Part shown: positions 21,935 through 50,939 of the stretch, piece after piece | How the letters are laid out: the number at the start of each line of letters is the position of its first letter | How positions within the stretch are numbered: the stretch's first letter is position 1 | NCBI GenBank assembly: GCA_021736255.1 | Contig: JAIPGG010000002.1 | Span: 8,154 to 72,153, forward strand | Direction: 5' to 3' | From: Spirochaetales bacterium | GTDB lineage: Bacteria > Spirochaetota > Spirochaetia > JAIPGG01 | Length of the DNA: 64,000 bases | Position numbers and translations under genes: made by a program | Notes under the pieces: model-generated | The model's database searches: none | Told to the model about the DNA's origin: nothing | What the model saw: only the letters and a program-made list of their open reading frames with translations

Positions 21935-22007
21935 TGCCGCCGATCAGAATCGAACTGATGACACGGGGATTTTCAGTCCCCTGCTCTACCGACTGAGCTA
22001 CAGCGGC
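21935..22007 (-). tRNA. tRNA-Phe (anticodon GAA), CCA not encoded
   Basis: Reverse complement GCCGCTGTAGCTCAGTCGGTAGAGCAGGGGACTGAAAATCCCCGTGTCATCAGTTCGATTCTGATCGGCGGCA. Cloverleaf with a 7-bp acceptor stem, GTTCGATTC T-loop and anticodon loop CTGAAAA. Confidence 0.92.
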
Positions 22008-22064
22008 ATCGAGACTATTTTTAGGAAATACTGAAAGAAATGTCAACACCCTCCGGTGAAGTTC

Positions 22065-22094
22065 TTGACCGGAGCGAATAGAGGGGAGTATCAT
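22065..22094 (+). promoter_or_regulatory. sigma70-like promoter candidate TTGACC-18-TATCAT in front of fliG
   Basis: -35 at 22065-22070 and -10 at 22089-22094. It lies inside the longest ORF (22056 start), which argues for a downstream start codon. Confidence 0.4.
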
Positions 22095-22100
22095 TCCCCC

Positions 22101-23351
22101 GTGAATAATAACAAACGCGCTTTCGACGCATATAAAAAGATGACTCGGCCATCGAAAGAGACCGGCGGATCGGATGATCCTGCCGAGCCCGCTGATCCCG
22201 GGAAAACCGCCAAATCCAGCGGGGAAAACAAAGCTGCCGGTTCCAAGAAGCCGGAGATGAATAAGCAGCCGGCTGCACCTCCTGCAGGCACCCAATCCGG
22301 GGACTCCGGGCTTTCAGGCAGCTCTGCGTTTTCGAAAGCAGTCGGGGGTTCCTCCGGCGCAGGTGCCTATGAGCGGGTGGCCAGATTTCTTCTGCTTCTT
22401 GGAAAAGAAGAGGCCTCCCAGGTTCTCAGTCAGCTGGATGAAGGAGATGTTCTCCGCATAGCGGAAGAAATTTCCAAAATCAAGAAGATTTCGCACGATG
22501 AAGCTCAACAGATACTGAACGATTTCGGACGCCGGATCGATGAGGAGTCAACCCGTGTGCGAGGAGGGGTGGATACCGCTAGATCGATGCTCCAGGCGGC
22601 AATGGGAGAGGAAAAAGCTCAGGAGATTCTAAAGCGTGCGGTTCCTGAATCGAGTAAGCGTCCTCCCTTCGAATTTCTCAACGATCTGAGTAAGTACCAG
22701 CTGCAGTTTCTGCTTCGAAACGAATCACCCTCGGCCCTTTCGGTTATTCTGTCATACATAAAAGCGGAGCAGGCCTCGAAGGTCATAGAAGGTCTCGAAG
22801 CAGGCGAACAGTTGGTCTTAGTCAAGAATATCGCCAGGAAGAGACAGATACAGCCCGAGATACTCGAAAAGATGGAGGTTGTTCTGAAAGAGAAGCTCCG
22901 GCGGTTAGGGAAGGACGATACGGAACAGGTCGACGGGACCGGACGGCTGGCTCAGATCTTGCGCCACATGAATTATTCGGTTGAACAGAAAATTCTCGAT
23001 GAACTCCAAACCGACAGCCCCGATCTATCCGACCAGGTCCGTGAGAAACTCTTTACCGTAGACAGGATTCTGCGGATATACGACAAGCATCTCCAGCAGA
23101 TTCTGCGCGACTTCGAAAATCGGGAGCTCGCTCTCTTTCTGAAGGACAAAAAAGAGACCCTCCGTGCGAAGATATTCGGAAATGTTTCTTCCCGGCGCCG
23201 GATGCTCATCAAAGAGGACATGGAGGACCTGGGAGAGGTCCGAAAGTCGGATGTTGATGCTGCCACGAATGACTTCCTTTCGTATCTGCGGGAACAGGAA
23301 GAGGACGGAGAGCTTATTATCGAAGGCGAAGAGGATACCTACGTAGAATAA
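22101..23351 (+). CDS. fliG: flagellar motor switch protein FliG homologue with ~110-aa low-complexity N-terminal extension
   Basis: FliG N/M/C pattern: LLLLGKEEASQVLSQLDEGDV, SALSVILSYIKAEQASKV, and C-terminal torque-helix region NRELALFLKDKKETLRAKIFGNVSSRRRMLIKEDMEDLGEVRKSDV. The start is ambiguous (GTG 22056, GTG 22101 or ATG 22140). Confidence 0.85.
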   Translation: MNNNKRAFDAYKKMTRPSKETGGSDDPAEPADPGKTAKSSGENKAAGSKKPEMNKQPAAPPAGTQSGDSGLSGSSAFSKAVGGSSGAGAYERVARFLLLLGKEEASQVLSQLDEGDVLRIAEEISKIKKISHDEAQQILNDFGRRIDEESTRVRGGVDTARSMLQAAMGEEKAQEILKRAVPESSKRPPFEFLNDLSKYQLQFLLRNESPSALSVILSYIKAEQASKVIEGLEAGEQLVLVKNIARKRQIQPEILEKMEVVLKEKLRRLGKDDTEQVDGTGRLAQILRHMNYSVEQKILDELQTDSPDLSDQVREKLFTVDRILRIYDKHLQQILRDFENRELALFLKDKKETLRAKIFGNVSSRRRMLIKEDMEDLGEVRKSDVDAATNDFLSYLREQEEDGELIIEGEEDTYVE

Positions 23352-37306: not shown

Positions 37307-37335
37307 TTCATAGCATGTATCCCGCCTTGTGTCAG
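37307..37335 (-). promoter_or_regulatory. promoter candidate CTGACA-17-(TGc)TATGAA for dnaE
   Basis: On the minus strand, the -35 is at 37335-37330 and the -10 at 37312-37307, preceded by TGc (extended -10). It overlaps the stop codon of the upstream FAD-subunit gene. AGGAGG Shine-Dalgarno sequence follows. Confidence 0.4.
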
Positions 37336-38219
37336 TATCGGCCCGGAACAGGAATTGTTGCTTCACTACCGAGGTTGCTCAGAAAGTCCAGGGCTTTGAG
37401 AATGAGCATTCTCCGGTCGAGTTCTCTGGGGATCGGTCCTGCAGCCTGGAAAAACGAATCGAGCTCTTGGTATAGATACTCGGTTTCCCGCTGGGAAAGA
37501 GGTGGAACACGGCCGACCAGCTCCGCTTCCAGTTCACGGTGCCGCATGACCAACCGGCGAAAGGCGCTGAATACCAGCCGTGCTTCGGAAATTGTTCCCT
37601 TTTCCATCCGGGCTACTGCGGTTACGGAGAGATGAGTTTCCGGCATCCAGAAATTGTGTTCATGCTTCCAATAGAGTTCCTCGGTAAAACTCTCGACGGG
37701 TATGAGTATTCGCTGGATGAGTTCACCCGGTTTGAGCCTGAGGTTGTTCTCTGAATCGATCAGTCTGGGGATCGGAAGCCTGCGGCTTCCTTCCGGACCA
37801 ATCAGTTCGACTTGAGCTTCGAGGGCGAAGAGAACGGGGAAGCTGTCCATCCGATATTCCGGGTTGGATAGGTTCCCGCCGAGACCGGCAAGATTCCGGA
37901 TTGCAGGGGTGCCGATGGAGGTCAGACAACGGTACAGACAGACGGGGAGAACCCTCTTGGCCTGCTCGAGCAAAAGGGATAAGGGGGCGGCTGCTCCGAT
38001 TTCGAGAAAGCGTTCGGTTCGGTGAATCCTCGTCAATTCATCGATTCCCCCGATATTGATTACCTGTTCTCCGAGGACGGGAATTTTCTTTTGTTCACGG
38101 CCCAGCAGCCATGTGCCGCCGGCAAAGAGAACGGCCGACGGGTGCCGGCTGTAGAGTTGAATGAGCTCGGTCAAATCAGCAGGCGAGAAAAAGCTAACCA
38201 TTCGCTGTTCAGCTGCCAT
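37332..38219 (-). CDS. XDH/CODH-family FAD-binding subunit homologue (CoxM/XdhB-like)
   Basis: FAD_binding_5-like LFAGGTWLL and AIRNLAGLGGNL. Start taken at MAAEQRMVSFF (38219), overlapping the upstream gene by 11 nt. Confidence 0.8.
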   Translation of the reverse strand: MAAEQRMVSFFSPADLTELIQLYSRHPSAVLFAGGTWLLGREQKKIPVLGEQVINIGGIDELTRIHRTERFLEIGAAAPLSLLLEQAKRVLPVCLYRCLTSIGTPAIRNLAGLGGNLSNPEYRMDSFPVLFALEAQVELIGPEGSRRLPIPRLIDSENNLRLKPGELIQRILIPVESFTEELYWKHEHNFWMPETHLSVTAVARMEKGTISEARLVFSAFRRLVMRHRELEAELVGRVPPLSQRETEYLYQELDSFFQAAGPIPRELDRRMLILKALDFLSNLGSEATIPVPGRY

Positions 38220-38685
38220 TTCTCGACCTCCTGAAGTATGCTGCCAGATGTATCGCCCGGAATAGAGTTGACTCTCCTCCGCAGCGGGTTTCGATACTCC
38301 GGAAAATATTGCGGATTTCGCTCTGCTCGGGGTTTTCCTCACGCTGAATAAGGTCATGAACCAGGAGAATGAGAGCAGGTTTGACAGGTTCACAGAGTTT
38401 CACCCCTGCTTCCTCGAATCCGCCTTCGATATCCCGGTATTCATCCGTGTTCCGGAACCCCTCGAGCGTCATGATCTCTTTATTTCTGATATTTGCGGCC
38501 AGCACCAAACATGAGGGCACCGGCCGTCCCTGCAGAAGCACCATGCAGTTCCCGCAGCTTCCTCGATAACAATCTCCGGTGATGCTTGAAATACTGTAAC
38601 GGTCACGGAGAATATCTACCAGTCTTCTTTCGGGCTTCGAGTTGAGACGAACCTTTTTCCCGTTTAGAACAAAGTCGATTATCAA
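38209..38685 (-). CDS. XDH/CODH-family [2Fe-2S] small-subunit homologue (CoxS-like) with degenerate second cluster motif
   Basis: Plant-type motif C-x4-C-x2-C-x11-C is intact (GDCYRGSCGNCMVLLQGRPVPSCL). In the region aligning to QCGFCTPG...NLCRCTGY it reads KLCEPVKPA...ETRCGGES. Confidence 0.8.
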   Translation of the reverse strand: MIIDFVLNGKKVRLNSKPERRLVDILRDRYSISSITGDCYRGSCGNCMVLLQGRPVPSCLVLAANIRNKEIMTLEGFRNTDEYRDIEGGFEEAGVKLCEPVKPALILLVHDLIQREENPEQSEIRNIFRSIETRCGGESTLFRAIHLAAYFRRSRNGS

Positions 38686-40745
38686 CTGCTTTCCTCCAGC
38701 TCTTTGAGCCGTTCGCTCGTAATCGGGAGACTGTCAAAGTCGAGGCCGGTAGCTTGACTTACAGCGACGGCGAATGCCGGTGGAATTGTAGAATAGGGAA
38801 GCTGGGAAATTCCCTTGATGGTTGACCGGTTGCCGTCTTCGAGGAAATCGATATAAACAGGAGGAGTTGCGGCGGGCGGTAACAGGTGATAACGGTGCCA
38901 GTCTCCCTCGTCGGGCGCCTTTCCCCGGGAGAGAATCTCATGGTAGGACCAACCGAGAGCGGAGCGGATTCCCTCCTCCAGGCTGCTTACCAGTCGCCTG
39001 CGGTTGATGACCACCCCGCCGCTTATCATCAACCATATTCCGCGAATCGTTAATTCGAAACTTATAGAATCTACTTCCACTTCCACAACGGAAGCTCCCC
39101 ACGCGGATTGAGGAAAGGGATAGCCTTCGAAGCTTTCATGGTTCCACGCGTGTTTCGGCGGCAGCCGGTAGCTTCTTTGGATTTCAATAGGAAGGGCTTC
39201 CCGGAAACGCCGCTTCTTGATTGCATCGAAGCACTGCTTGAGTAGCCGCGATGTAACGGTGAGGTTTCGCGCTAGTATCGATGGACCGGTATCCGGAACC
39301 GTCGAGGTTGCCGGAGAGGTGAAATGGACTTGTTCGGGGGATATATCGAGGGTTCTTGCCGCCATTTCCTTCCAGTATGATTGAAGAGCTTCGGAAATGC
39401 TGGAGGTTGAAATGGAAAGATTACCTGCGGTATCCATGGATACTCGCACGGTCTTCGACAGCTTTACCTCCTTGCGTCCGATAAAGCCGTTTCCCTGATA
39501 GCCGGTAGAAAGCCCGATTCCCCGGCTCATATCGATTGTTTTAGAAAGAGAACTGCGACGCTTTCTGCGCATCTCATAGGCCGCATGTTTCCGCCGATAA
39601 TCGGAGCGGTCCACTACCGACTCCAGAGCCGGCAGGACAGCCTCGGCTTCGCGGTAGAAGCGGGGAACTTCCTCTTCGATATCAGGTTTGATGTGACGTT
39701 TTTTCCACTCGTAAGGGTCCTGTTCACTCATATAAGCGGCCCTTCCTCCATGCACCTCGGAAATGAAAAGACCCTGGCTTGTTCCCAGGCCTTCGAAGGC
39801 GTTCATGGGGGGTTTGTTGGTAGTAACAATACGGCCTGTGAGGTTCATAGCAGGGCAGTAATGCTGCCCAACGGCGCCGAGACATATTCGTTCGAGCATC
39901 TCCTCTTCGAAAAGAGGGAAGGCGCCTGCATCACAGCTGATATCAATTTCCCGTGCCGTAATATACCCTTCGGCCGAAAGATGGGTACGCAGTTGTGCTG
40001 AAACAGGTGCACGCTTGGAGGTATAGAGGAAGTCCTCCTGCCGGTTGTACCGGAGGAGAACCGGTTTTCCGGTTAACCATGCGGCCAGGGCGGCATGGGC
40101 GGCAACCAGAGAACTGCTCCAGACCTTCCCGTCCAGTACCGTTTGTTCATCCTTGATTTGGATAGAGACCTGTTCAGGGTTGATACCCAGAACCTCGGCC
40201 ACTGTGGTCTTGACGTGATAGGGCCAGCGGGAATAGGTGTGCACCTCGATCTCCCGGCCCTTTCGTAGAGCAAAAGCGCTGTGGGGTTCAGGATAGTAGT
40301 GTTCCTGCGGCGGTGTGGATATCCGTTCTTCGAGGACCTGCACCGCCTGCTGCTTCTGGAAATCCATATCTCCGTAAGAGATTCGGTAGTCGCTTTCCTT
40401 CGTAGCCGGTCCGGGTGTTGCGGCAAGAAAGCGGGGTTCTGCCGGAACCGCATCGATATGAATCCTCTCTGCGGCCGTGCTCAGCTCTTCTTCATCATTG
40501 CCGACCAAAAGCCCGAGAGGCATTCCCCGATAGGACAGGATGTCCTTGGCCAAAACCGGCATATGTGACTGAAAAACCGTGAGCCTGTTTTTGCCGGGAA
40601 TGTCAGCGGCGGTAATTAGCCTGTATCCAGTCGGCAAAGAACCGCTGTCAATGCTGCGCAGCCGCCCACGGGCTACCGGCGAACGAACCGTCACCGCAGT
40701 GAAGAGCTTTTTCTTGTATTGTTTGCGATAAGCAATTTCATCCAT
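38682..40745 (-). CDS. XDH/aldehyde-oxidase-family molybdopterin-subunit homologue, apparently degenerate active site
   Basis: N-terminal a/b-hammerhead pattern (TVRSPVARGRLRSID...ITAADIPGKN...YRGMPLGLLVGNDEEEL). Core GKPVLLRYNRQEDFLYTSKRAP...DAGAF. C-terminal GGVVINRRRLVSSLEEGI and KGISQLPYSTIPPAFAVAV. Confidence 0.8.
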   Translation of the reverse strand: MDEIAYRKQYKKKLFTAVTVRSPVARGRLRSIDSGSLPTGYRLITAADIPGKNRLTVFQSHMPVLAKDILSYRGMPLGLLVGNDEEELSTAAERIHIDAVPAEPRFLAATPGPATKESDYRISYGDMDFQKQQAVQVLEERISTPPQEHYYPEPHSAFALRKGREIEVHTYSRWPYHVKTTVAEVLGINPEQVSIQIKDEQTVLDGKVWSSSLVAAHAALAAWLTGKPVLLRYNRQEDFLYTSKRAPVSAQLRTHLSAEGYITAREIDISCDAGAFPLFEEEMLERICLGAVGQHYCPAMNLTGRIVTTNKPPMNAFEGLGTSQGLFISEVHGGRAAYMSEQDPYEWKKRHIKPDIEEEVPRFYREAEAVLPALESVVDRSDYRRKHAAYEMRRKRRSSLSKTIDMSRGIGLSTGYQGNGFIGRKEVKLSKTVRVSMDTAGNLSISTSSISEALQSYWKEMAARTLDISPEQVHFTSPATSTVPDTGPSILARNLTVTSRLLKQCFDAIKKRRFREALPIEIQRSYRLPPKHAWNHESFEGYPFPQSAWGASVVEVEVDSISFELTIRGIWLMISGGVVINRRRLVSSLEEGIRSALGWSYHEILSRGKAPDEGDWHRYHLLPPAATPPVYIDFLEDGNRSTIKGISQLPYSTIPPAFAVAVSQATGLDFDSLPITSERLKELEESS

Positions 40746-40770
40746 GGGTATCTATATCTTCCGTGACGTC

Positions 40771-41976
40771 TCAGCTCAGCCTGAAATGGGATTTACCAAT
40801 GTGTATTACTGTTTCAATTATTCGATCAATCTGCCGATCGGTCAACTCCGGATAGAGGGGAAGACTGATGGTTCGGCTGAAAGAATCAAGGGCATTCGGG
40901 AAATCCCCGGGTTTCAGGCCGTAGCGGTCACGATAATACGGCATGAGATGAAGGGGGATATAGTGTACCGAAGTTCCGATTCCGGCCTCTGAGAGTGCAC
41001 GGATGTATTCATCGCGAGTGATCGTCAATTGCTCCGGACGTATCCTGAGCAGAAACAGGTGCCATGCATGGCTCGAAGGAGCAGGGGGCATCTCAAAAAA
41101 ACTGTACTCACCGAGTCTGCTCAGATATATCTTGGCTATCCGCTTCCTCTGTTGAGCAAGTTCCCAGGCTCTTTTCAGTTGTACTCGTCCCATTGCGGAG
41201 GCTGTGTCCGGCATGTTGTATTTGTAGCCGGCCTCGACGACATAATATTCCCAATCCGCCTCGTTGCCTTCATAACGGAACCACGCATCCCGGTCGATCC
41301 CGTGCAGACGCATAATTTGAATCCGTTCGGCGGTTTTCTTTGAATTGGTAACAACCATTCCCCCTTCCCCGGTGGTGAGCGGTTTCGTAGCATAAAAGGA
41401 AAACACCCCTGCATCCCCGACGGTTCCGGCAAAGGGGGCTGCTTTTCTGCTTTCCTCGGAAGTTTCTCCTTCTTCGATCCGGAGAGGAAAGGCATGGGCG
41501 GCATCCTCTATCAGCGGAATATGCCGGCGCTCCGCCAGGGATTTGAGGTGAGTTGCCGCGCATGGTGCCCCGCCGAGGTGCACCGGGAGCAGGCAGGCCG
41601 TCTTTTCCTTTTCCAACAGGGCTTCCACCCCGGAGGGGTCGATCTGGAAATCGTCCGGGTTGATGTCTACAAACCGGGGGTGGGCCCCCAGATGTCTGAT
41701 TGCCTCGGCGGTTGCAGTGAAGGTATAGGGAGTGGTAATAACCTGATCCCCTTCCCCGACGCCGAGGGCTTCAAGCGCCAGGTGGAGTCCGGCGGTTGCG
41801 GAATTTACAGCCAATGCATTCGGGCACCGGATGAACTCTGCAAATTCCTCTTCGAACCGGAGGGTCTCCCGGCCCGTTGTGAGCCATCTGCTGCGAAGCA
41901 CTCGGTCGACCGCTCGTCGTTCCGCCCTCCCGATCGACGGACGGTGAAAGGGAATAGGATCAGTACGGCGGTTCAT
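40771..41976 (-). CDS. DegT/DnrJ/EryC1/StrS-family sugar aminotransferase (PglE/WecE-like)
   Basis: PFHRPSIGRAERRAV, NSATAGLHLAL and PLP-lysine segment FSFYATKPLTTGEGGMV. Start at MNRRTDPIPF (41976), overlapping the upstream gene by 17 nt. Confidence 0.88.
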   Translation of the reverse strand: MNRRTDPIPFHRPSIGRAERRAVDRVLRSRWLTTGRETLRFEEEFAEFIRCPNALAVNSATAGLHLALEALGVGEGDQVITTPYTFTATAEAIRHLGAHPRFVDINPDDFQIDPSGVEALLEKEKTACLLPVHLGGAPCAATHLKSLAERRHIPLIEDAAHAFPLRIEEGETSEESRKAAPFAGTVGDAGVFSFYATKPLTTGEGGMVVTNSKKTAERIQIMRLHGIDRDAWFRYEGNEADWEYYVVEAGYKYNMPDTASAMGRVQLKRAWELAQQRKRIAKIYLSRLGEYSFFEMPPAPSSHAWHLFLLRIRPEQLTITRDEYIRALSEAGIGTSVHYIPLHLMPYYRDRYGLKPGDFPNALDSFSRTISLPLYPELTDRQIDRIIETVIHIGKSHFRLS

Positions 41977-43438
41977 CACGAGGAACCTCCAGGGAAGGAA
42001 TATGTTTTTGAAGTATGCTGCGCAGAAGGCGGCGGTTCCGATACGAGTCACTCCGATCTGAATCAAGGAAACAGATTGGAGCGAGCTTTTCCAGCAGTTC
42101 CGGTAGATTCAGAACATTCGGGCGGGACCTTTCGACCCGGAGAATTTTTTCGAAGCTTGTTTCCACACTGTTTTCATGAGAAGAAACGAGATGCTCGGAG
42201 ACCTTCTCTCCGGGCCGCATCCCGATCCAGGAGATGTCGATGTCCCGGTACGGTTCGAAACCGTAAAAGCGTATCATTTGCTCTGCCAGATCTCTGATCC
42301 GTACCGGTTCTCCCATATCCAGGAGGTAGAGGTTTCCTCCGCTTCCCAAGCCTGCGGTCTTTAGTACCAGCGAGGAGGCTTCCGGAATGGTCATAAAGAA
42401 ACGTGATGTTTCCGGGTGAGTAAGGGTAACCGGGCCTCCCTTGAGGATTTGTTTCCGGAAGAGGGGAAGAATGCTTCCCCGGGAGCCGAGCACGTTTCCG
42501 AAGCGCACCACCAGATAATCGCGGACATCCGCCGCCCGCCTTAGTACGAGTTCCTCGGCAATGAGTTTCGAAGCCCCGTAAACTGAAAGCGGATTGACGG
42601 CCTTGTCGGTGGAAATCAGAGTGAGCCGGGGAACCCCGCTTTCTTCTGCGGCATCCAGCAGGTTGAGTGTGCCGAAAACATTGTTTTTTATCCCGGCTAT
42701 GGGATTGGCCTCCATAAGCGGCACATGCTTGTAGGCTGCGCTGTGAAATATAACGTCCGCCTTCAATCGAGAGAAGATGAATCGGACAAAATCACGATCC
42801 TGGAGTTCGCCGATGACTGGAACGATGGTGGCTTTCTCTCCGACTCCTTCCTCCTGGAGTATTCTGAGTTCTCTGTCGATGTCGTATATGCTGTTTTCCC
42901 CGTGGCCGAGAAGATAGAGGCGCTCCGCCCCGCCGGAGAGCAATTGTCTGGCGAGTTCGCTGCCGATGCTCCCGCCTGCTCCGGTTATCAGAACACGTTT
43001 ACCCCGGAGATACGAGAGGCTCTCCTTGAGGTGTATGGCAACCGGTCCGCGGGAGAGGAGGTCTTCGGGGTTTATTTCCCGTGCCTGAATCAGGTGGGCT
43101 TCCCCGTCGACGATCTGGGCAATTCCCGGCAGGATGCGGATTCGCGAGAATTCGGCCTGCTTGAGTATGGAGTAGAGCTTGCTCAATTGGCGCCTGTCGG
43201 CGCTCGGAATTGCAATAATTGCTTCGTCGGTCGGGGTGGTGTCAACCAGGTTCATGACTGCATCTATCGGTCCGAGAACAGGGATCCCCTCGATACGGGT
43301 ACCGATTTTTTCGGAATCATCGTCGAGAAAAGCAACCACACTCCCGAGAATACCCTTTTTGTGGATTTCCGAGGCAATGGACCTTCCGGCAAAACCGGCG
43401 CCGATAATGTAGATCCGTGTTTCTCTTATACTCGGCAT
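41960..43438 (-). CDS. CapD/PglF/WbpM-family nucleotide-sugar 4,6-dehydratase, soluble form (no N-terminal TM segment)
   Basis: N-terminal Rossmann IYIIGAGFAGRSIA, SDR core VLITGAGGSIGSELARQL and catalytic AAYKHVPLME. Confidence 0.88.
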   Translation of the reverse strand: MPSIRETRIYIIGAGFAGRSIASEIHKKGILGSVVAFLDDDSEKIGTRIEGIPVLGPIDAVMNLVDTTPTDEAIIAIPSADRRQLSKLYSILKQAEFSRIRILPGIAQIVDGEAHLIQAREINPEDLLSRGPVAIHLKESLSYLRGKRVLITGAGGSIGSELARQLLSGGAERLYLLGHGENSIYDIDRELRILQEEGVGEKATIVPVIGELQDRDFVRFIFSRLKADVIFHSAAYKHVPLMEANPIAGIKNNVFGTLNLLDAAEESGVPRLTLISTDKAVNPLSVYGASKLIAEELVLRRAADVRDYLVVRFGNVLGSRGSILPLFRKQILKGGPVTLTHPETSRFFMTIPEASSLVLKTAGLGSGGNLYLLDMGEPVRIRDLAEQMIRFYGFEPYRDIDISWIGMRPGEKVSEHLVSSHENSVETSFEKILRVERSRPNVLNLPELLEKLAPICFLDSDRSDSYRNRRLLRSILQKHIPSLEVPRDEPPY

Positions 43439-43444
43439 ATGCTC

Positions 43445-43996
43445 TCAGCGATGATTAGATTCCGGGAGCTCTTCCCGGTCGTTTTTCATGGCTTCCATGT
43501 CTTCGAAGCCGAAATCTATCAAAAACGCGTCGTCGTAAAGGCTCAGTTTGACCTTGGCACGCTTTTTCCTTTTATCCACCTTGACTATTCTGCCCTCTAG
43601 GCCCTTGAGTGGCCCGTCGAGAACCTGTATGCGCTGGTTTTCATCGAAGACAACCTGAGATTTCTCCGCTATTTCCCCGTACGATTGAAAGTGAAGCACC
43701 AGTCGTTTATCATCACCTTCGAGTGGTACAATGTCGTAGTTGCTTTTGAGAAAGCGATAAAAATCCGGCATTCGCTTTAAGAGCCAGTAGATGTCTGCGC
43801 TCACCTCTTCGGTTTCCAGAAAAAGGTAGCCGGGAAAGATCGGTTTCAGGGTTTCCTTGGGTTTTCCCTGTTTCCATATAGTAAGACTCCGCCGGGGCCA
43901 AAAGAATTTAAGACGAAGCTCAGGATTGTTATAGGCTATCATCTTGAGAAATTTGTCTTCATTCCGTGATTTAACCTGAACAACATAGAAGTTCAT
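43445..43996 (-). CDS. specialised NusG-family paralogue (NGN + KOW), putative operon-specific antiterminator
   Basis: NGN pattern FYVVQVKSRNEDK...IFPGYLFLETE. KOW pattern RIQVLDGPLKGLEGRIVKVDKRKKRAKVKLSLY. No adjacent secE/rplK context, and it lies 6 nt upstream of the capD-like gene. Confidence 0.8.
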   Translation of the reverse strand: MNFYVVQVKSRNEDKFLKMIAYNNPELRLKFFWPRRSLTIWKQGKPKETLKPIFPGYLFLETEEVSADIYWLLKRMPDFYRFLKSNYDIVPLEGDDKRLVLHFQSYGEIAEKSQVVFDENQRIQVLDGPLKGLEGRIVKVDKRKKRAKVKLSLYDDAFLIDFGFEDMEAMKNDREELPESNHR

Positions 43997-44073: not shown

Positions 44074-44156
44074 GCAGGATGGGAAGGAAGGCCCCGGGAG
44101 TAATACTCAGGAAATTTTTCAAGATTCCGATATTTTAGAATAAGGAGTACTCTGCT

Positions 44157-46377: not shown

Positions 46378-48507
46378 ATGAAGAATTCCCAGGGAGGCGC
46401 TGATGCTGCCGATCGCAACAGCAATCGGCACCCGAAAGAAGAGATGGACCGCCTTGCCGGTCTTCTGCGCCGGTACCAACACGAGTACTACGTGCTCAGT
46501 GCCCCCTCGGTATCCGACGAAGAGTATGACCGTTTGTTCGAGCGGCTGAAATATCTGGAATCAGAATATCCCGAATATGCCCGGCCGGACTCTCCCTCTC
46601 AACGGGTGGGTTCCGATTTGATGCATGAACTGCCGGAGGTGGAACACAGCATTCCTGTGCTCAGCTTGGATAAGGCCTACACCGACGAAGGGGTTTTGAG
46701 TTGGATGGAGAAGACCGCCGGAGCGGCAGGTGAACCGGTTACCTTTCTTGCCGAGGAGAAGATAGACGGTGTCTCGATCGTGCTCTATTATGAAGACGGG
46801 GTGCTGCAGCGAGCTGTGACCAGGGGCAACGGGTATGTGGGAAACGATGTTACCCCGAATGTAAAGACTATCGGAGCCGTGCCGCTTTCCCTGCACAAGG
46901 TGTCGGATCTCACTGTTCGCGGCGAGATATATCTGCCGAAAGACAGGTTTCAGGATATAAACAGCCGCATGCCCGAGCCCTTTGCCAACCCGAGAAATCT
47001 GGCATCCGGAACACTGCGCCGAGTTCGCAGTGTGGAGACCGCACGAGTACCGCTTACCATGTTCGCCTATGAGGGAATTTTCCCCGACCAGGAAGAAACC
47101 CATGACCGGGTTCTGACCAGGCTCGAGGAACTCGGATTCAGGGTAAATCCCCGTTTTCGACTGTTCAGAATTGATCCTGCCGACCCGAGCGCTTCCGGCA
47201 GTGACTGGGAAGAGTTCAAAGCCTTTCTCAAGCAGGAGAATGAAGAGCGGGATAGCCTTACCTATGAAATCGACGGACTCGTAATCAAGGTAAACGAATT
47301 GGCCCCCCGCGAGCGGCTTGGTTATACGAGCCATCATCCCAGATGGGCTGTTGCCTACAAATTCGAATCGCCCCAGGGGATAACCCGGGTTCGTGATATC
47401 GAGGTGCAAATCGGTCGAACCGGCAGGGCAACACCGGTAGCCCGGGTCGAACCGGTCTCCATAGGAGGCTCGACCATTACGAATGTAACGCTCCACAACC
47501 AGGAATATATATCAGCACTCGAGCTCTCCATCGGCGACCAGGTCGCTGTTTCTCGAAGGGGCGATGTGATACCGGCGGTGGAAAGGGTTATCGAAAAGGA
47601 TGCCGGCAGTCCGCCGGTCTGGAAAATGCCCGAAAACTGCCCTTCCTGCGGCCGAAAGCTGCAGCAAAAGGGTGCTCATCATTTCTGCGTCAATCCGGAT
47701 TGTCCGGCGATCCGATTCGGCAGACTCCGTTTTTTTGCGGCCAAGGGGCAGATGGATATAGATAATCTCGGTCCGGAGACGGTGAATACACTTTTCGAAA
47801 TGGGTCTGGTAGAGGACATTGCCGATTTTTATCGGGCTGATTATTCACAGCTTTTAGGTCAGGAAGGATTCGGGCCGAAGAAGGTAGAGCTGATAAAGCG
47901 CGGGGTGGAAAAGAGTAAGCAGCGCTCCTTTCGTACGGTATTGACCGCTCTTGGTATTTCGGATTTGGGTGAAAATGTTGCGGACTTGCTTATCTCAGGC
48001 GGTTTCTCATCGATGGAAGGGCTTCTCGAGGCGGCCGACCGGGACGACCGGGATGCTCTCTCGGCGATAGCGGGGATCGGGCCGAAGATGGCCGAAGGGA
48101 TTCTCTCTTCTTTGCGGGACCGGCGGCTGCGGGAACAGATCTCCGCCCTCGCTGAGGCCGGCATTTCCATGTCTGCGGAGGAGGACAGGCGCAAGGCTGC
48201 CGGAGAGGCTTCCGGTGGAGAGGAATCCGGACAGGATCTCCCCCGGATTTTCGAAGGTCAGACATGGTGTGTCACCGGCAGTTTCGAGTCCTTCACTCCG
48301 AGGGAGGAGGCGATGGAAGAGGTGAAAAAGCGCGGGGGCAGGGTAGTCTCTTCGGTCACCGGTAAAACCACCCATCTCCTCGCCGGCAGCGGAGCGGGTT
48401 CGAAGCTGGAAAAGGCGCGCAGTCTGGGGGTTTCGGTTGTCGACGAGGCGGAATTTCTCCGGCTGCTCGGCCGAGGCGAATCAGAGAACAAAGCGGAACG
48501 GCAGTGA
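46378..48507 (+). CDS. ligA: NAD-dependent DNA ligase
   Basis: Adenylation motif EEKIDGVSI, Zn-finger CPSCGRKLQQKGAHHFCVNPDC, HhH region and C-terminal BRCT (WCVTGSFESFTREEA). Confidence 0.95.
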   Translation: MKNSQGGADAADRNSNRHPKEEMDRLAGLLRRYQHEYYVLSAPSVSDEEYDRLFERLKYLESEYPEYARPDSPSQRVGSDLMHELPEVEHSIPVLSLDKAYTDEGVLSWMEKTAGAAGEPVTFLAEEKIDGVSIVLYYEDGVLQRAVTRGNGYVGNDVTPNVKTIGAVPLSLHKVSDLTVRGEIYLPKDRFQDINSRMPEPFANPRNLASGTLRRVRSVETARVPLTMFAYEGIFPDQEETHDRVLTRLEELGFRVNPRFRLFRIDPADPSASGSDWEEFKAFLKQENEERDSLTYEIDGLVIKVNELAPRERLGYTSHHPRWAVAYKFESPQGITRVRDIEVQIGRTGRATPVARVEPVSIGGSTITNVTLHNQEYISALELSIGDQVAVSRRGDVIPAVERVIEKDAGSPPVWKMPENCPSCGRKLQQKGAHHFCVNPDCPAIRFGRLRFFAAKGQMDIDNLGPETVNTLFEMGLVEDIADFYRADYSQLLGQEGFGPKKVELIKRGVEKSKQRSFRTVLTALGISDLGENVADLLISGGFSSMEGLLEAADRDDRDALSAIAGIGPKMAEGILSSLRDRRLREQISALAEAGISMSAEEDRRKAAGEASGGEESGQDLPRIFEGQTWCVTGSFESFTPREEAMEEVKKRGGRVVSSVTGKTTHLLAGSGAGSKLEKARSLGVSVVDEAEFLRLLGRGESENKAERQ

Positions 48508-49319
48508 ATACTCACCGGAAAACAAAAAGCAAGCGTCAACTACGGAAGGAACAGAAGGCTGCAGCCCTGCTCGAGGGACAGGGGTGGGGAGTAATTCCGC
48601 CGAATCAGTATCTGATCGATATGGAATCCGAATTCCTAGAGATCTGGAGGCAGGTGAGTCCCTATACCATGACCAGTGTAGAGCGGGGATATGCCCTCTA
48701 TCAGGCGGTGTTTTCCGTTCTCGACAGGAATATTGCCGGAGATTTTGTAGAGTGCGGGGTCTGGAAGGGAGGGTCGGCAGCATTAATGGCTTTAAGCCTT
48801 TTCCGAGCGCGGCACTCCAATCAAGAGATCCGGTCTTCTGCGGCCCGAGAGAGGCGAATCTGGTGCTACGATACCTTTTCGGGGATGACCGAACCCGGAG
48901 AGGAAGACAGGATTGCAGCAACCGGTCAGTCTGCAGCAAAGCGGCTGCAGAAAGATGCATCGTTTTCCTCCTGGGCAGTAGGTATGGAAGAGGTGAAAAA
49001 CAACCTTTCCCGGGTCGGACTCGATTCGAGGGGCTTTAGGTTTATTCCCGGTCCTGTGGAACAGACGCTCGATCAGCAGATGCCGGATCGGGTTGCGCTG
49101 CTTCGCCTTGATACCGATTGGTACGAATCGACCCGCGTCGAACTGGAACGGCTCTATCCGCTGTTATCCCCCGGCGGGGTTTTGATCATTGATGATTACG
49201 GCCACTTTACCGGGGCCCGCAAGGCGGTGGACGAGTACTTTTCTTCTCGGGCAGACTCGATGCCGGTACTGCTTCAGCGTATCGATTACACCGGCCGGCT
49301 CGTCCTCAAGCCGGGATAA
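48504..49319 (+). CDS. TylF/MycF (macrocin-O-methyltransferase) family SAM-dependent methyltransferase
   Basis: DFVECGVWKGGSAALMAL and LRLDTDWYESTRVELERLYPLLSPGGVLIIDDYGHF. GTGA overlap with the ligA stop. The alternative start ATG 48621 (MESEFLEIW) is possible. Confidence 0.8.
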   Translation: MNTHRKTKSKRQLRKEQKAAALLEGQGWGVIPPNQYLIDMESEFLEIWRQVSPYTMTSVERGYALYQAVFSVLDRNIAGDFVECGVWKGGSAALMALSLFRARHSNQEIRSSAARERRIWCYDTFSGMTEPGEEDRIAATGQSAAKRLQKDASFSSWAVGMEEVKNNLSRVGLDSRGFRFIPGPVEQTLDQQMPDRVALLRLDTDWYESTRVELERLYPLLSPGGVLIIDDYGHFTGARKAVDEYFSSRADSMPVLLQRIDYTGRLVLKPG

Positions 49320-49733: not shown

Positions 49734-50939
49734 TCAGTTTACGACCGGCGGTGAAACCGGAAAATCGAAGGCAAACCTGTGCCGGAAAAGGAGGAGTGTA
49801 TCCACAAACCGGCGATTGTTCCGGGGGTCCGAATCGAAAAACAGAAGATGTGAACTGCACGAGCAATCACTGGACCCGAAGTTCGTCACCTCCCCGTCAG
49901 CGGCCGCCCGGACATGCGAGGCAAGAGAACATTCGAGGTCGAAGCGGCTTCGGATGGGAAAGGACTTTACAAGGCTGCCCTCCTGAAGGAGGTAATCAAT
50001 GTGCCAGTGCATCCGCTTCCTCTGCCGTTTGTGGCGGGCCACCCGCGCTGTAAGCCCGCGCCGGGCTGAGCCGGCGTAGACATACCATCCCCTCGGAAAC
50101 TCGAGAGGGCCGAGAGAGCCGATTCGAATCACTTTTCGAGTTTCTATCCGGACTAACAACAGGTAGGCCCCGCCGTCCGGAAGTTCTCGTATGGGGTCCA
50201 GATTTACCGGCAGCTCGGGCTCGGCTATCCGCATCAGACCGGAGGCGTCAGTTTCCACGGACACAGCTCGGATATCTATCGTGTCGGAAAACTGGAGCAG
50301 AGCACGGGAAAAAGCGGGATCAGTATGCGGGTTCGGCAGAAACCGCTCTGCCCGGCCGGAGGCAACCAGGAAAAGGACCATCGGCTTGATCAATTTTCCC
50401 TCCCATCGGCTTCCCGCCAGGGCAGCCAGTTCTTCCAGGTGTCTTTTGCCGCGCTCGGTTGGGGCGTCCGGAAACATGGCCGTCCCTTCTTCGATCAGCG
50501 TGCAGGATTTTACTTCCAGCAAGACAGCATCTTTGCCCGCCGGTCCCTCGGCGGTAAAGGCAAAATCAAAACGGGATCGGCCGAACCGGACCTCGCTGCG
50601 GAGGTTGTACATCCATGGAAAAAGGCGGGGCAGAACCAGATCGGAAACGAGCTGGTTTGCTCGGGAGGAATGGAGAGGAAGCACGCCTTTCCGGTAAAAG
50701 ATTCCGACAAGGGTGAAATCTGTTTTTCTCCCTTGAGGGCTGGCTGTCTTTCCGGCCTTTTCGAAAATCAACCGGGCACCCGGCAGCAGGAGTTCTTCCA
50801 TACGCCCCGGATTCGGACAGTGGGCCCTGACTGCCTCTCCGTTTATATCGGCAAGGACCGTAAACCGGTTGGGGCGTCCTAAAAACAAACCGATATGATC
50901 GGGAGAAAAATGTCGGTAGGAACCATCCGGCTGGATCAT
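49734..50939 (-). CDS. sfsA: SfsA (sugar fermentation stimulation / nuclease-like) fused to a C-terminal DUF123 (GIY-YIG-superfamily) domain
   Basis: SfsA part: RPNRFTVLADINGEAVRAHCPNPGRM, LLEVKSCTL and FPDAPTERGKRHLEEL. DUF123 part: GAYLLLVRI..IRIGSLG..FPRGWYVYAGSA...RHKRQRKRMHWHIDYLL...ECSLA...FGSSDCSCSSHLLFF. Confidence 0.85.
   Translation of the reverse strand: MIQPDGSYRHFSPDHIGLFLGRPNRFTVLADINGEAVRAHCPNPGRMEELLLPGARLIFEKAGKTASPQGRKTDFTLVGIFYRKGVLPLHSSRANQLVSDLVLPRLFPWMYNLRSEVRFGRSRFDFAFTAEGPAGKDAVLLEVKSCTLIEEGTAMFPDAPTERGKRHLEELAALAGSRWEGKLIKPMVLFLVASGRAERFLPNPHTDPAFSRALLQFSDTIDIRAVSVETDASGLMRIAEPELPVNLDPIRELPDGGAYLLLVRIETRKVIRIGSLGPLEFPRGWYVYAGSARRGLTARVARHKRQRKRMHWHIDYLLQEGSLVKSFPIRSRFDLECSLASHVRAAADGEVTNFGSSDCSCSSHLLFFDSDPRNNRRFVDTLLLFRHRFAFDFPVSPPVVN

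Follow-up and report, generated by a model that had tools for sequence, protein, structure and literature searches.

PseB- or PglF-type dehydratases and PseC- or PglE-type aminotransferases convert UDP-N-acetylglucosamine (UDP-GlcNAc), by way of a 4-keto-6-deoxy intermediate, to UDP-2-acetamido-4-amino-2,4,6-trideoxyhexose, the branch-point precursor of pseudaminic acid (Pse), legionaminic acid and bacillosamine-type sugars. In the E1/E3 step of CDP-3,6-dideoxyhexose synthesis (AscC/AscD, RfbH), a [2Fe-2S] flavoprotein serves a sugar enzyme of the DegT family. LoaP genes occur in Spirochaetota, beside polysaccharide or secondary-metabolite operons, and LoaP is known to act through two elements of a long 5′ leader, a UNCG hairpin and a NusA-dependent terminator (PMC12691694). 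We analysed a stretch of 64,000 nucleotides from a Spirochaetales bacterium (contig JAIPGG010000002.1 of assembly GCA_021736255.1, positions 8,154 to 72,153; hereafter the window), in which six consecutive genes encode a LoaP, a 4,6-dehydratase, a DegT-family aminotransferase and a trio of proteins related to xanthine dehydrogenase (XDH) and carbon monoxide dehydrogenase (CODH). The explanation that best accounts for our observations, to which we assign a probability of about 0.5, is a conserved operon in which two enzymes would carry out amino-sugar steps and the trio would work with the sugar pathway independently of the molybdenum cofactor (Moco).

A first-pass annotation of the window had described six head-to-tail open reading frames (ORFs) on the minus strand, their junctions and a promoter candidate ahead of them, and we found all of these in place. 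Profile searches with all six proteins (Pfam, NCBIfam) likewise agreed with the families to which it had assigned them. The genes, in order of transcription, are as follows (XO, xanthine oxidase; PLP, pyridoxal phosphate; FAD, flavin adenine dinucleotide).

43996-43445, minus strand: loaP, a NusG paralogue with NGN and KOW domains, 183 amino acids (Pfam NusG and KOW; NCBIfam LoaP NF033641)
43438-41960, minus strand: CapD/PglF/PseB-like soluble nucleotide-sugar 4,6-dehydratase, 492 amino acids (Polysacc_synt_2, 349.7 bits)
41976-40771, minus strand: DegT/PseC-like PLP-dependent sugar 4-aminotransferase, 401 amino acids, ATG at 41976 (DegT_DnrJ_EryC1, 382.6 bits)
40745-38682, minus strand: divergent XO/XDH-family large ('Mo-binding') subunit homologue, 687 amino acids (MoCoBD_1, MoCoBD_2 and a weak Ald_Xan_dh_C match)
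38685-38209, minus strand: [2Fe-2S] small-subunit homologue, 158 amino acids, TTG start at 38685 (Fer2_2 and Fer2)
38219-37332, minus strand: FAD-binding medium-subunit homologue, 295 amino acids, ATG at 38219 (FAD_binding_5, 111.5 bits)

Successive genes are separated by a 6-nucleotide gap, a 17-nucleotide overlap, a 25-nucleotide gap, a 4-nucleotide overlap and an 11-nucleotide overlap. These junctions match the medians across the clade of orthologous loci (+11, -17, +9, -4 and -17 nucleotides in the same order), and the 4-nucleotide overlap between the large and iron–sulfur (FeS) subunits equals its median (range -4 to +24). The block lies in a housekeeping region of the chromosome and its G+C content is flat, which argues for core genome rather than an island. 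For the FeS subunit, the public gene call (L001:6629-6964, equal to window 38209-38544) gives only 111 amino acids and omits the TTG start at 38685 together with the entire N-terminal [2Fe-2S] domain; alignment to homologues in the Protein Data Bank (PDB) favours the form of 158 amino acids.

A profile of the large subunit, searched against bacterial and archaeal contigs at one genome per species, returned 365 loci, and we examined the best 80. All 80 belong to Spirochaetota (Treponema, Treponemataceae, Breznakiellaceae, Rectinemataceae and unclassified Spirochaetales), and the complete genome of Breznakiella homolactica RmG30 is among the Breznakiellaceae carriers. When these loci were compared with the window proteins by tblastn, nearly all showed the order LoaP–CapD–DegT–large–FeS–FAD: the first three genes lay directly upstream of the large subunit at 56 of the 62 loci with enough flanking sequence, and FeS and FAD subunits followed it at 66 of 67 assessable loci. 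The order is kept although the related large subunits are only about 35–40% identical to that of the window, and two look-ups anchored on LoaP homologues recovered the same six genes. Such an arrangement is far beyond chance. That the six genes form one conserved unit, as had been proposed, is thus borne out, and the contrary expectation, that orthologues of the trio would never adjoin loaP, capD and degT in related genomes, fails decisively. On comparative grounds, we regard the six genes as an operon confined, within Spirochaetota, to the part that holds Treponema, Breznakiella and Rectinema.

The conservation exceeds general synteny, because the six genes hold together even as the gene downstream of the trio changes (dnaE in 15 of the 80 loci, an aroB-like gene in 18). 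The wider neighbours of the window (ligA, a TylF-like methyltransferase gene and an AMP-ligase gene) are common to only 3–11 close relatives. Part of the conservation is nevertheless plain synteny, because the block is only slightly more widely conserved than a divergent SPOR-domain gene upstream of it. Some exceptions to the order carry inserted mobile or defence genes (Wadjet JetC/JetD, a Uma2 nuclease, a BrnT toxin); in some metagenome-assembled genomes of Treponema these split the operon directly ahead of the trio or of degT (L029:4673-9748, L040:4382-9959 and L019:8048-8434).

Two promoter candidates, both read from the sequence, frame the unit.

44073-44045, minus strand: sigma-70-type promoter candidate TTGAAG-17-TGCTATTTT upstream of loaP, with the -35 element at 44073-44068 and the extended -10 element at 44053-44045
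37335-37307, minus strand: boundary promoter candidate CTGACA-17-TGCTATGAA (TGcTATGAA), spanning the stop codon of the FAD subunit and lying outside the unit

The first has the extended -10 element TGcTATTTT and implies a leader of about 40–48 nucleotides to the loaP ATG. Its class of motif, TTGnnn-N16-18-TGnTAnnnT, recurs ahead of loaP in 25 of 59 orthologous loci, where shuffles predict 0.3, and it was found before none of the other five genes at any locus (63–81 loci per gene). This distribution speaks for one promoter in front of the whole unit and upholds the original promoter call; on these motifs, transcription of the unit appears to start from a single sigma-70-type promoter immediately ahead of loaP. 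The second candidate, also present as first described, precedes an AGGAGG ribosome-binding site and the dnaE ATG (37286); a terminator scan found none between the unit and dnaE. Nor did we find a convincing hairpin with a T-tract on the minus strand within the block, in agreement with the first-pass annotation: terminator-like sites across the window are at chance level (16 versus 14.0±4.3 expected), and those on the minus strand within the block have weak stems and poor T-tracts. The best sigma-70-like match of the promoter scan, TTGACC-17-AATAAT within degT (40845-40817), was not adopted as an internal promoter, because such matches are at chance level in the window (6 versus 6.9 expected) and none of 79 loci has the extended -10 motif ahead of the trio.

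These observations bear most directly on the rival that survives best, which was already raised when the window was first annotated: two unrelated modules would share one promoter, and the trio, a redox enzyme in its own right that might act on a small molecule or dispose of electrons, would have no biochemical link to the sugar and would ride on the loaP–capD–degT transcript through ancestral gene order or co-regulation. The trio does stand alone beside prfB in the distant member L084, and it persists where defence islands part it from the sugar genes (L029, L040). It also evolves much faster than its neighbours, with a mean identity across the clade of about 36–50%, compared with 56–67% for the sugar enzymes, and the near-equal conservation of the SPOR-domain neighbour also fits this account. 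Set against this, the gene order holds in those 56 of 62 loci at a divergence at which downstream neighbours already differ, the junction between DegT and the large subunit has a median of 9 nucleotides and is often an overlap, and the promoter motif was not found ahead of the trio in 79 loci. We consider two independent modules possible but rather less than probable, and prefer an operon whose parts work together.

The trio itself departs from the enzymes that it resembles. The window large subunit gave a confident AlphaFold2 (AF2) model (mean pLDDT 85.8), and Foldseek matched this model to xanthine oxidase, Desulfovibrio gigas aldehyde oxidoreductase and Rhodobacter capsulatus XDH (3AX7, 1SIJ and 1JRO) with TM-scores of 0.83–0.87 at about 20% identity. 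Pfam, AF2 and Foldseek agree on the XO/XDH large-subunit fold, an a/b hammerhead followed by two MoCoBD domains. By contrast, the large subunit scores no more than 165 bits against NCBIfam equivalog profiles whose cut-offs are about 800, and the FAD subunit, in which the AGGT and GGN motifs are present, has no Pfam match to the CO_deh_flav_C C-terminal domain. To compare motifs, we aligned 81 large subunits of the clade with eight canonical outgroup proteins and PDB sequences; the FeS set held 78 sequences and the FAD set 68. The glutamine before the first cysteine of FeS cluster I is a pterin contact in canonical enzymes. Canonical elements and their state in the clade and in the window are given below.

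GGGFGGKE: G-[VIL]-H-[LM]-D-G-K-[LI] in the clade; DEQTVLDGKV in the window
Arginine of FRGFG: Ala, Gly or Ser, never Arg, in the clade; Glu (E318) in the window
(S/T)TE[IF]GQG loop: columns unconserved in the clade; not recognisable in the window
GQIEGG segment: columns unconserved in the clade; not recognisable in the window
Glutamine before the first cysteine of FeS cluster I: Pro, Thr or Asn, never Gln, in the clade; Leu in the window
Mo=O glutamine (Q767): Gln in 75/81 of the clade; Arg (R173) in the window
Catalytic glutamate (bovine E1261): Glu in 68/81 and Asp in 11/81 of the clade; Gln (Q648), unique in the set, in the window
Eight FeS cysteines: kept in 77–78/78 of the clade; six kept in the window, with C101V and C133T
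FAD motifs: kept in the clade and in the window

Four of six Moco-contact segments are thus replaced or unconserved across the clade, and only the SR of a further segment, ASR, is kept. In the distant member P0045, the protein of locus L084, the Mo-site glutamine is Asp and the glutamate is Ser, whereas all eight cysteines and the FAD motifs are intact. Judged by these alignments, the flavin and FeS parts seem to be under stronger constraint than the Mo site, so we infer that the large subunit is Moco-independent, or at least non-canonical. An identity as a canonical XDH, CODH or aldehyde oxidoreductase was rejected on the loss of motifs. The initial label of an XDH/CODH-like trio therefore stands for the fold and the three subunit types and falls for the enzyme, which is not a normal XDH or CODH, as its Moco-binding loops are lost clade-wide.

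The copy in the window has gone further. Four substitutions were located by alignment to PDB and clade sequences (the first two) or to 3hrd_D, 8uem_C and 4zoh_C (the last two).

40227-40229, minus strand: R173 in place of the Mo=O glutamine
38802-38804, minus strand: Q648 in place of the catalytic glutamate
38383-38385, minus strand: V101 in place of an FeS cysteine
38287-38289, minus strand: T133 in place of an FeS cysteine

In the FeS subunit, the N-terminal plant-type site is intact (C39, C44, C47 and C59) and the C-terminal, Mo-proximal site keeps C98 and C135 only; the cysteines equivalent to V101 and T133 are kept in 77 of 78 sequences, the window being the sole exception. Because two cluster ligands, the glutamate and the Mo=O glutamine are all lost, the trio in the window cannot perform XO-type catalysis or transfer electrons along the usual chain, which leaves two readings of it: a structural partner, or a complex on its way to loss. 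The first of these fits an option raised in the first-pass annotation, that the trio is a non-catalytic partner complex, and the losses of Moco loops and FeS ligands favour that option over a standard hydroxylase.

The second alternative, that the window trio consists of decaying genes without function, a relic attached to a working loaP–capD–degT operon, takes these same losses at face value: the window is alone among 78 sequences in lacking two FeS ligands and alone among 81 in having Gln at the catalytic Glu. Ranked by departures from clade-conserved columns, its large subunit is 3rd of 81, its FeS subunit 2nd of 78 and its FAD subunit 1st of 68, the most divergent of all orthologues; DegT is an average 30th of 67. 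Yet none of the three ORFs is shortened or interrupted by a frameshift or stop, their translationally coupled, overlapping junctions are kept, the large subunit still folds confidently in the model, and neither the N-terminal FeS site nor the FAD motifs have been lost, which makes simple decay unlikely in our judgement. The last alternative, a genuine but very divergent Moco-dependent hydroxylase or aldehyde oxidoreductase (oxidising, for example, a sugar aldehyde to an acid used as a glycan acyl group) of which the window copy is an inactivated exception, can appeal to the intact fold, to the Gln, Glu/Asp, SR and eight cysteines kept by most of the clade and to the existence of XO-family aldehyde oxidoreductases that act on glyceraldehyde (matches to 4zoh and NF041018), but we think it improbable given the clade-wide changes to FRGFG, GGGFGGK, both pterin loops (EIGQG and GQIEGG) and the pterin-contacting Gln, and the replacement of both Gln and Glu in the window and in P0045.

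The two enzymes upstream of the trio carry the hallmarks of their families. The CapD-like protein reads as an N-terminal Rossmann-like domain followed by a short-chain dehydrogenase/reductase domain with STDK (STDKAV) and YGASK motifs; it is about 64% identical across the clade, and its best NCBIfam match is PseB (164 bits, cut-off 408). The DegT-like protein scores 335 bits against PseC (cut-off 423.5) and 314 bits against ArnB, its PLP-binding lysine lies within SFYATKPLTTGEGG (SFYATKPL) and is conserved across the clade, and the window copy departs at only 2 of 117 clade-conserved columns. Family profiles and catalytic motifs therefore uphold the earlier assignment of a PglF/PglE-type sugar pair, which may equally be called PseB/PseC type. 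By family, CapD and DegT would take UDP-GlcNAc to UDP-2-acetamido-4-amino-2,4,6-trideoxyhexose. At six loci (for example L002:5448-6749, plus strand), a gene for a Wzz/KpsE-like co-polymerase (GNVR domain) lies directly upstream of loaP with a 4-nucleotide overlap. This gene is absent from the window; in the genomes that have it, the unit has seven genes, and its overlap with the start of loaP gives independent support for a glycan context.

The first gene had been recognised as a specialised NusG paralogue and can now be placed in the LoaP family. It scores 149.9 bits against the NCBIfam LoaP profile NF033641 (cut-off 125) and remains below the cut-offs of the other families (NusG 62 versus 135.7 bits, UpxY 47 versus 100, RfaH 23 versus 144.5). 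Pfam NusG covers residues 1–95 and KOW residues 121–149, and NCBI names the identical protein 'antiterminator LoaP'. UNCG hairpins were sought in the regions upstream of loaP and were present in 7 of 55 (shuffles: 3.7±1.9), with no consistent position; the loaP leader of the window folds no better than shuffles (z = 0.28), and an Rfam scan of the window returned tRNA only. At most orthologous loci only about 8–15 nucleotides, typically about 13, separate the end of the extended -10 element from the loaP ATG, so the loaP mRNA there would be leaderless or nearly so; the 48-nucleotide spacing of the window is unusually long. Processive antitermination of the unit, as first proposed, is unproven, since the searches gave neither a UNCG hairpin nor a structured leader, and no terminators inside the unit. 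Control of the unit by its own LoaP is plausible but unproven, and the LoaP may have its target elsewhere in the genome or be recruited in a different mode.

Taken together, we propose that the trio is a Moco-independent flavo-iron-sulfur complex whose large subunit would have been re-purposed as a substrate-binding or scaffold module, and that it probably works with the amino-sugar pathway. LoaP, as the product of the first gene, would presumably keep RNA polymerase processive over the 6.7-kb unit or over other glycan operons. The most plausible role would be in making or tailoring the unusual flagellin glycan of spirochaetes. The N7 nitrogen of Pse derives from the amine added by a PseC-type step. 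In T. denticola, the flagellin glycan is a Pse-configured nonulosonic acid with a 2-methoxy-4,5,6-trihydroxyhexanoyl group at N7 (PMC13439194), and flagellin glycosylation is described in the same article, citing Kurniyati 2017, as essential for filament assembly. The N7 acyl group thus sits on the amine made by a DegT-type step, and it is this step that the trio follows in the operon, which provides the flagellin-glycan lead.

A second pointer comes from the divergent neighbour of the unit.

44126-44133, plus strand: sigma-28-like element TCCGATAT, upstream of a divergent gene for a secreted protein of 169 amino acids and of the SPOR-domain gene

A promoter of sigma-28 (FliA) type (CTAAGG or TAAAGG, 15 nucleotides, GCCGATA[AG]) precedes the divergent neighbour gene in at least 15 of 35 loci (among them L014, L020, L024, L030, L039, L046, L050, L056, L061, L067, L071, L072 and L077). 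The motif matches the mapped flaB2 promoter of T. denticola, TTAA/CCGATAA (PMC9481697), so that the adjoining operon could be part of the flagellar regulon. The divergent protein of 169 amino acids (up169) matched neither Pfam nor NCBIfam profiles, and a word-index search returned no homologues for it. The case for a flagellin-glycan role of the unit is circumstantial and we hold it only tentatively; a Moco-independent flavo-FeS partner in a Pse-type, perhaps flagellin, glycan pathway is our best guess, at low confidence.

The idea extends to T. pallidum, whose TP0077 and TP0078, next to the trio, we take to be cap5D and spsC, and which presumably lacks Moco synthesis; if so, that species would have the block but not the cofactor. 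In strain SS14, TPASS_0079 and TPASS_0081 are listed as XDH-like 'hypothetical proteins' (PMC4403809), a listing that survives the correction (PMC5951579). The persistence of XDH-like genes there speaks against a Moco-dependent enzyme to the extent that the lack of the Moco pathway holds. A bolder version, in which the trio is a Moco-free offshoot of the XO family in treponemes including T. pallidum, is a flavo-FeS or scaffold partner of PseB/PseC-type enzymes and is needed for the N7-acylated Pse glycan on which assembly of spirochaete flagellar filaments depends, strikes us as doubtful. If the link between trio and sugar is functional, a conserved gene set of undescribed chemistry would be present in syphilis and periodontal treponemes and in termite-gut symbionts, and the trio would be the first XO-family complex working without its defining cofactor. 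Such a link would also provide targets for a long-standing gap, how spirochaetes make a flagellin glycan essential for motility, and could explain why 'xanthine dehydrogenase' genes are kept in the reduced T. pallidum genome.

Several points weigh against a Moco-independent trio that serves the sugar pathway. Adjacency is the sole link between the chemistry of the trio and the sugar, and it is broken where L070 and L077 have no DegT between CapD and the trio and where the distant lineage L084 has no sugar genes next to it. Because most of the clade keeps the Mo-site Gln (75/81) and Glu or Asp (79/81), some Mo-centre-like chemistry or a differently bound cofactor is still conceivable from the alignments. 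CapD and DegT both score under the PseB and PseC equivalog cut-offs, the scan of about 50 window ORFs found no acyl- or glycosyl-transferase near the unit, and the LoaP hairpin and leader (upstream of loaP) and terminators (within the block) were not found.

The ORFs around the unit are housekeeping genes (dnaE, yggT, recG, his genes, ligA, tRNA synthetases, fliG and others among the roughly 50 scanned). None of the scanned ORFs encodes a glycosyltransferase, an acetyltransferase, a flippase or a Moco-biosynthesis protein; the first-pass annotation had reported the first three as missing, and correctly so. The aroB-like gene that follows the trio in 18 loci, resembling dehydroquinate synthase (DHQS), was considered as a clue to a sugar-phosphate cyclase and rejected: with an aroB score of 269.6 bits against a cut-off of 305, close to the equivalog, it is a housekeeping neighbour. 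At 17–18 loci, a conserved gene of about 506–533 codons without a Pfam or NCBIfam match lies 3′ of the aroB-like gene (for example L007:15062-16582, plus strand). The TylF-like O-methyltransferase and the AMP-ligase are unsupported as pathway partners, being syntenic in only 3–6 close relatives. The former, of the TylF (macrocin-type) family, is encoded at window 48504-49319 on the plus strand, where it overlaps the ligA stop codon, and is syntenic in three close relatives only; a link to the 2-methoxy group of the treponemal flagellin glycan is tempting, and nothing supports it.

Elsewhere in the window, one ORF (49734-50939, minus strand) encodes SfsA (OB and nuclease domains) fused to DUF123, a GIY-YIG-like domain. 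A stand-alone fliG with an N-terminal extension of about 100 amino acids (22056-23351, plus strand) lies amid tRNA-synthetase genes, adjoins a tRNA gene (21935-22007, minus strand) and, within the window, is apart from any flagellar cluster. The whole window contains 300 copies of the hexamer CTNCGG, compared with 171±14 in dinucleotide-preserving shuffles, an excess that is probably an effect of codon or amino-acid usage.

How does the unit compare with described systems? The LoaP systems of Bacillota, such as those of the dfn and mln operons of B. velezensis (PMC12691694), share with it a first gene that exceeds the NCBIfam LoaP cut-off. In B. velezensis, however, loaP sits beside its target, whereas here it lies inside the operon as the first gene; the leader here is about 48 nucleotides long and unstructured, and near zero in many orthologous loci, and there is neither enrichment of UNCG nor a standout internal terminator. 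LoaP seems to manage here without the kind of hairpin and leader on which it relies in Bacillus. Polysaccharide operons headed by RfaH or UpxY also combine a specialised NusG paralogue with surface-glycan genes, and in UpxY systems the paralogue is the first gene of the operon (PMC11685472). They differ in that the LoaP described here scores only 47 bits against UpxY and 23 bits against RfaH, far short of either cut-off, and heads a short unit of six genes, with no transferase or export genes in the window.

Among sugar pathways, PseB/PseC and PglF/PglE show the same succession of a Polysacc_synt_2-type 4,6-dehydratase and a DegT-family 4-aminotransferase with a PLP lysine. Both proteins here stay below the equivalog cut-offs (164 versus 408 and 335 versus 423.5 bits), and the genes that would follow in those pathways (N-acetyltransferase, PseG, PseI, PseF and glycosyltransferase) are not adjacent, the XDH-like trio standing in their place. 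E1/E3 is the one established pathway that joins a 4,6-dehydratase, a DegT-family enzyme and a [2Fe-2S] flavoprotein as electron donor. The first-pass annotation had known of no described link between the sugar chemistry and an XDH-type trio; such a link is indeed absent from the searchable literature, but this partial precedent had been missed. Its mechanism is not directly applicable, because DegT here is an ordinary Lys-type aminotransferase, whereas in E1 the PLP Lys is replaced by His and the enzyme has an FeS cluster of its own, and E3 is a protein of ferredoxin-NADP-reductase type rather than an XDH-type trio. Deoxygenation at C-3 of the E1/E3 type was rejected on the PLP Lys and on a poor RfbH score (146 bits, cut-off 423).

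The trio finds its closest counterparts in the heterotrimeric hydroxylases of the XO/XDH/CODH family (nicotinate dehydrogenase 3HRD, CODH 1FFV and 8UEM, Qor 1T3Q and 4-HBCR 1RM6). It has their three subunit types and their large-subunit fold, at TM-scores of 0.83–0.87, and the clade keeps the eight FeS cysteines and the FAD motifs. It differs from them in its identity of about 20%, in its gene order L–S–M, in the four of six Moco-contact segments that are replaced or unconserved in the clade and, in the window, in the additional loss of the catalytic Glu, the Mo=O Gln and two cluster-I cysteines. Set beside these enzymes, the trio is apparently a new, Moco-independent variant of the XO family within a LoaP-headed amino-sugar operon, and its chemistry is probably new.

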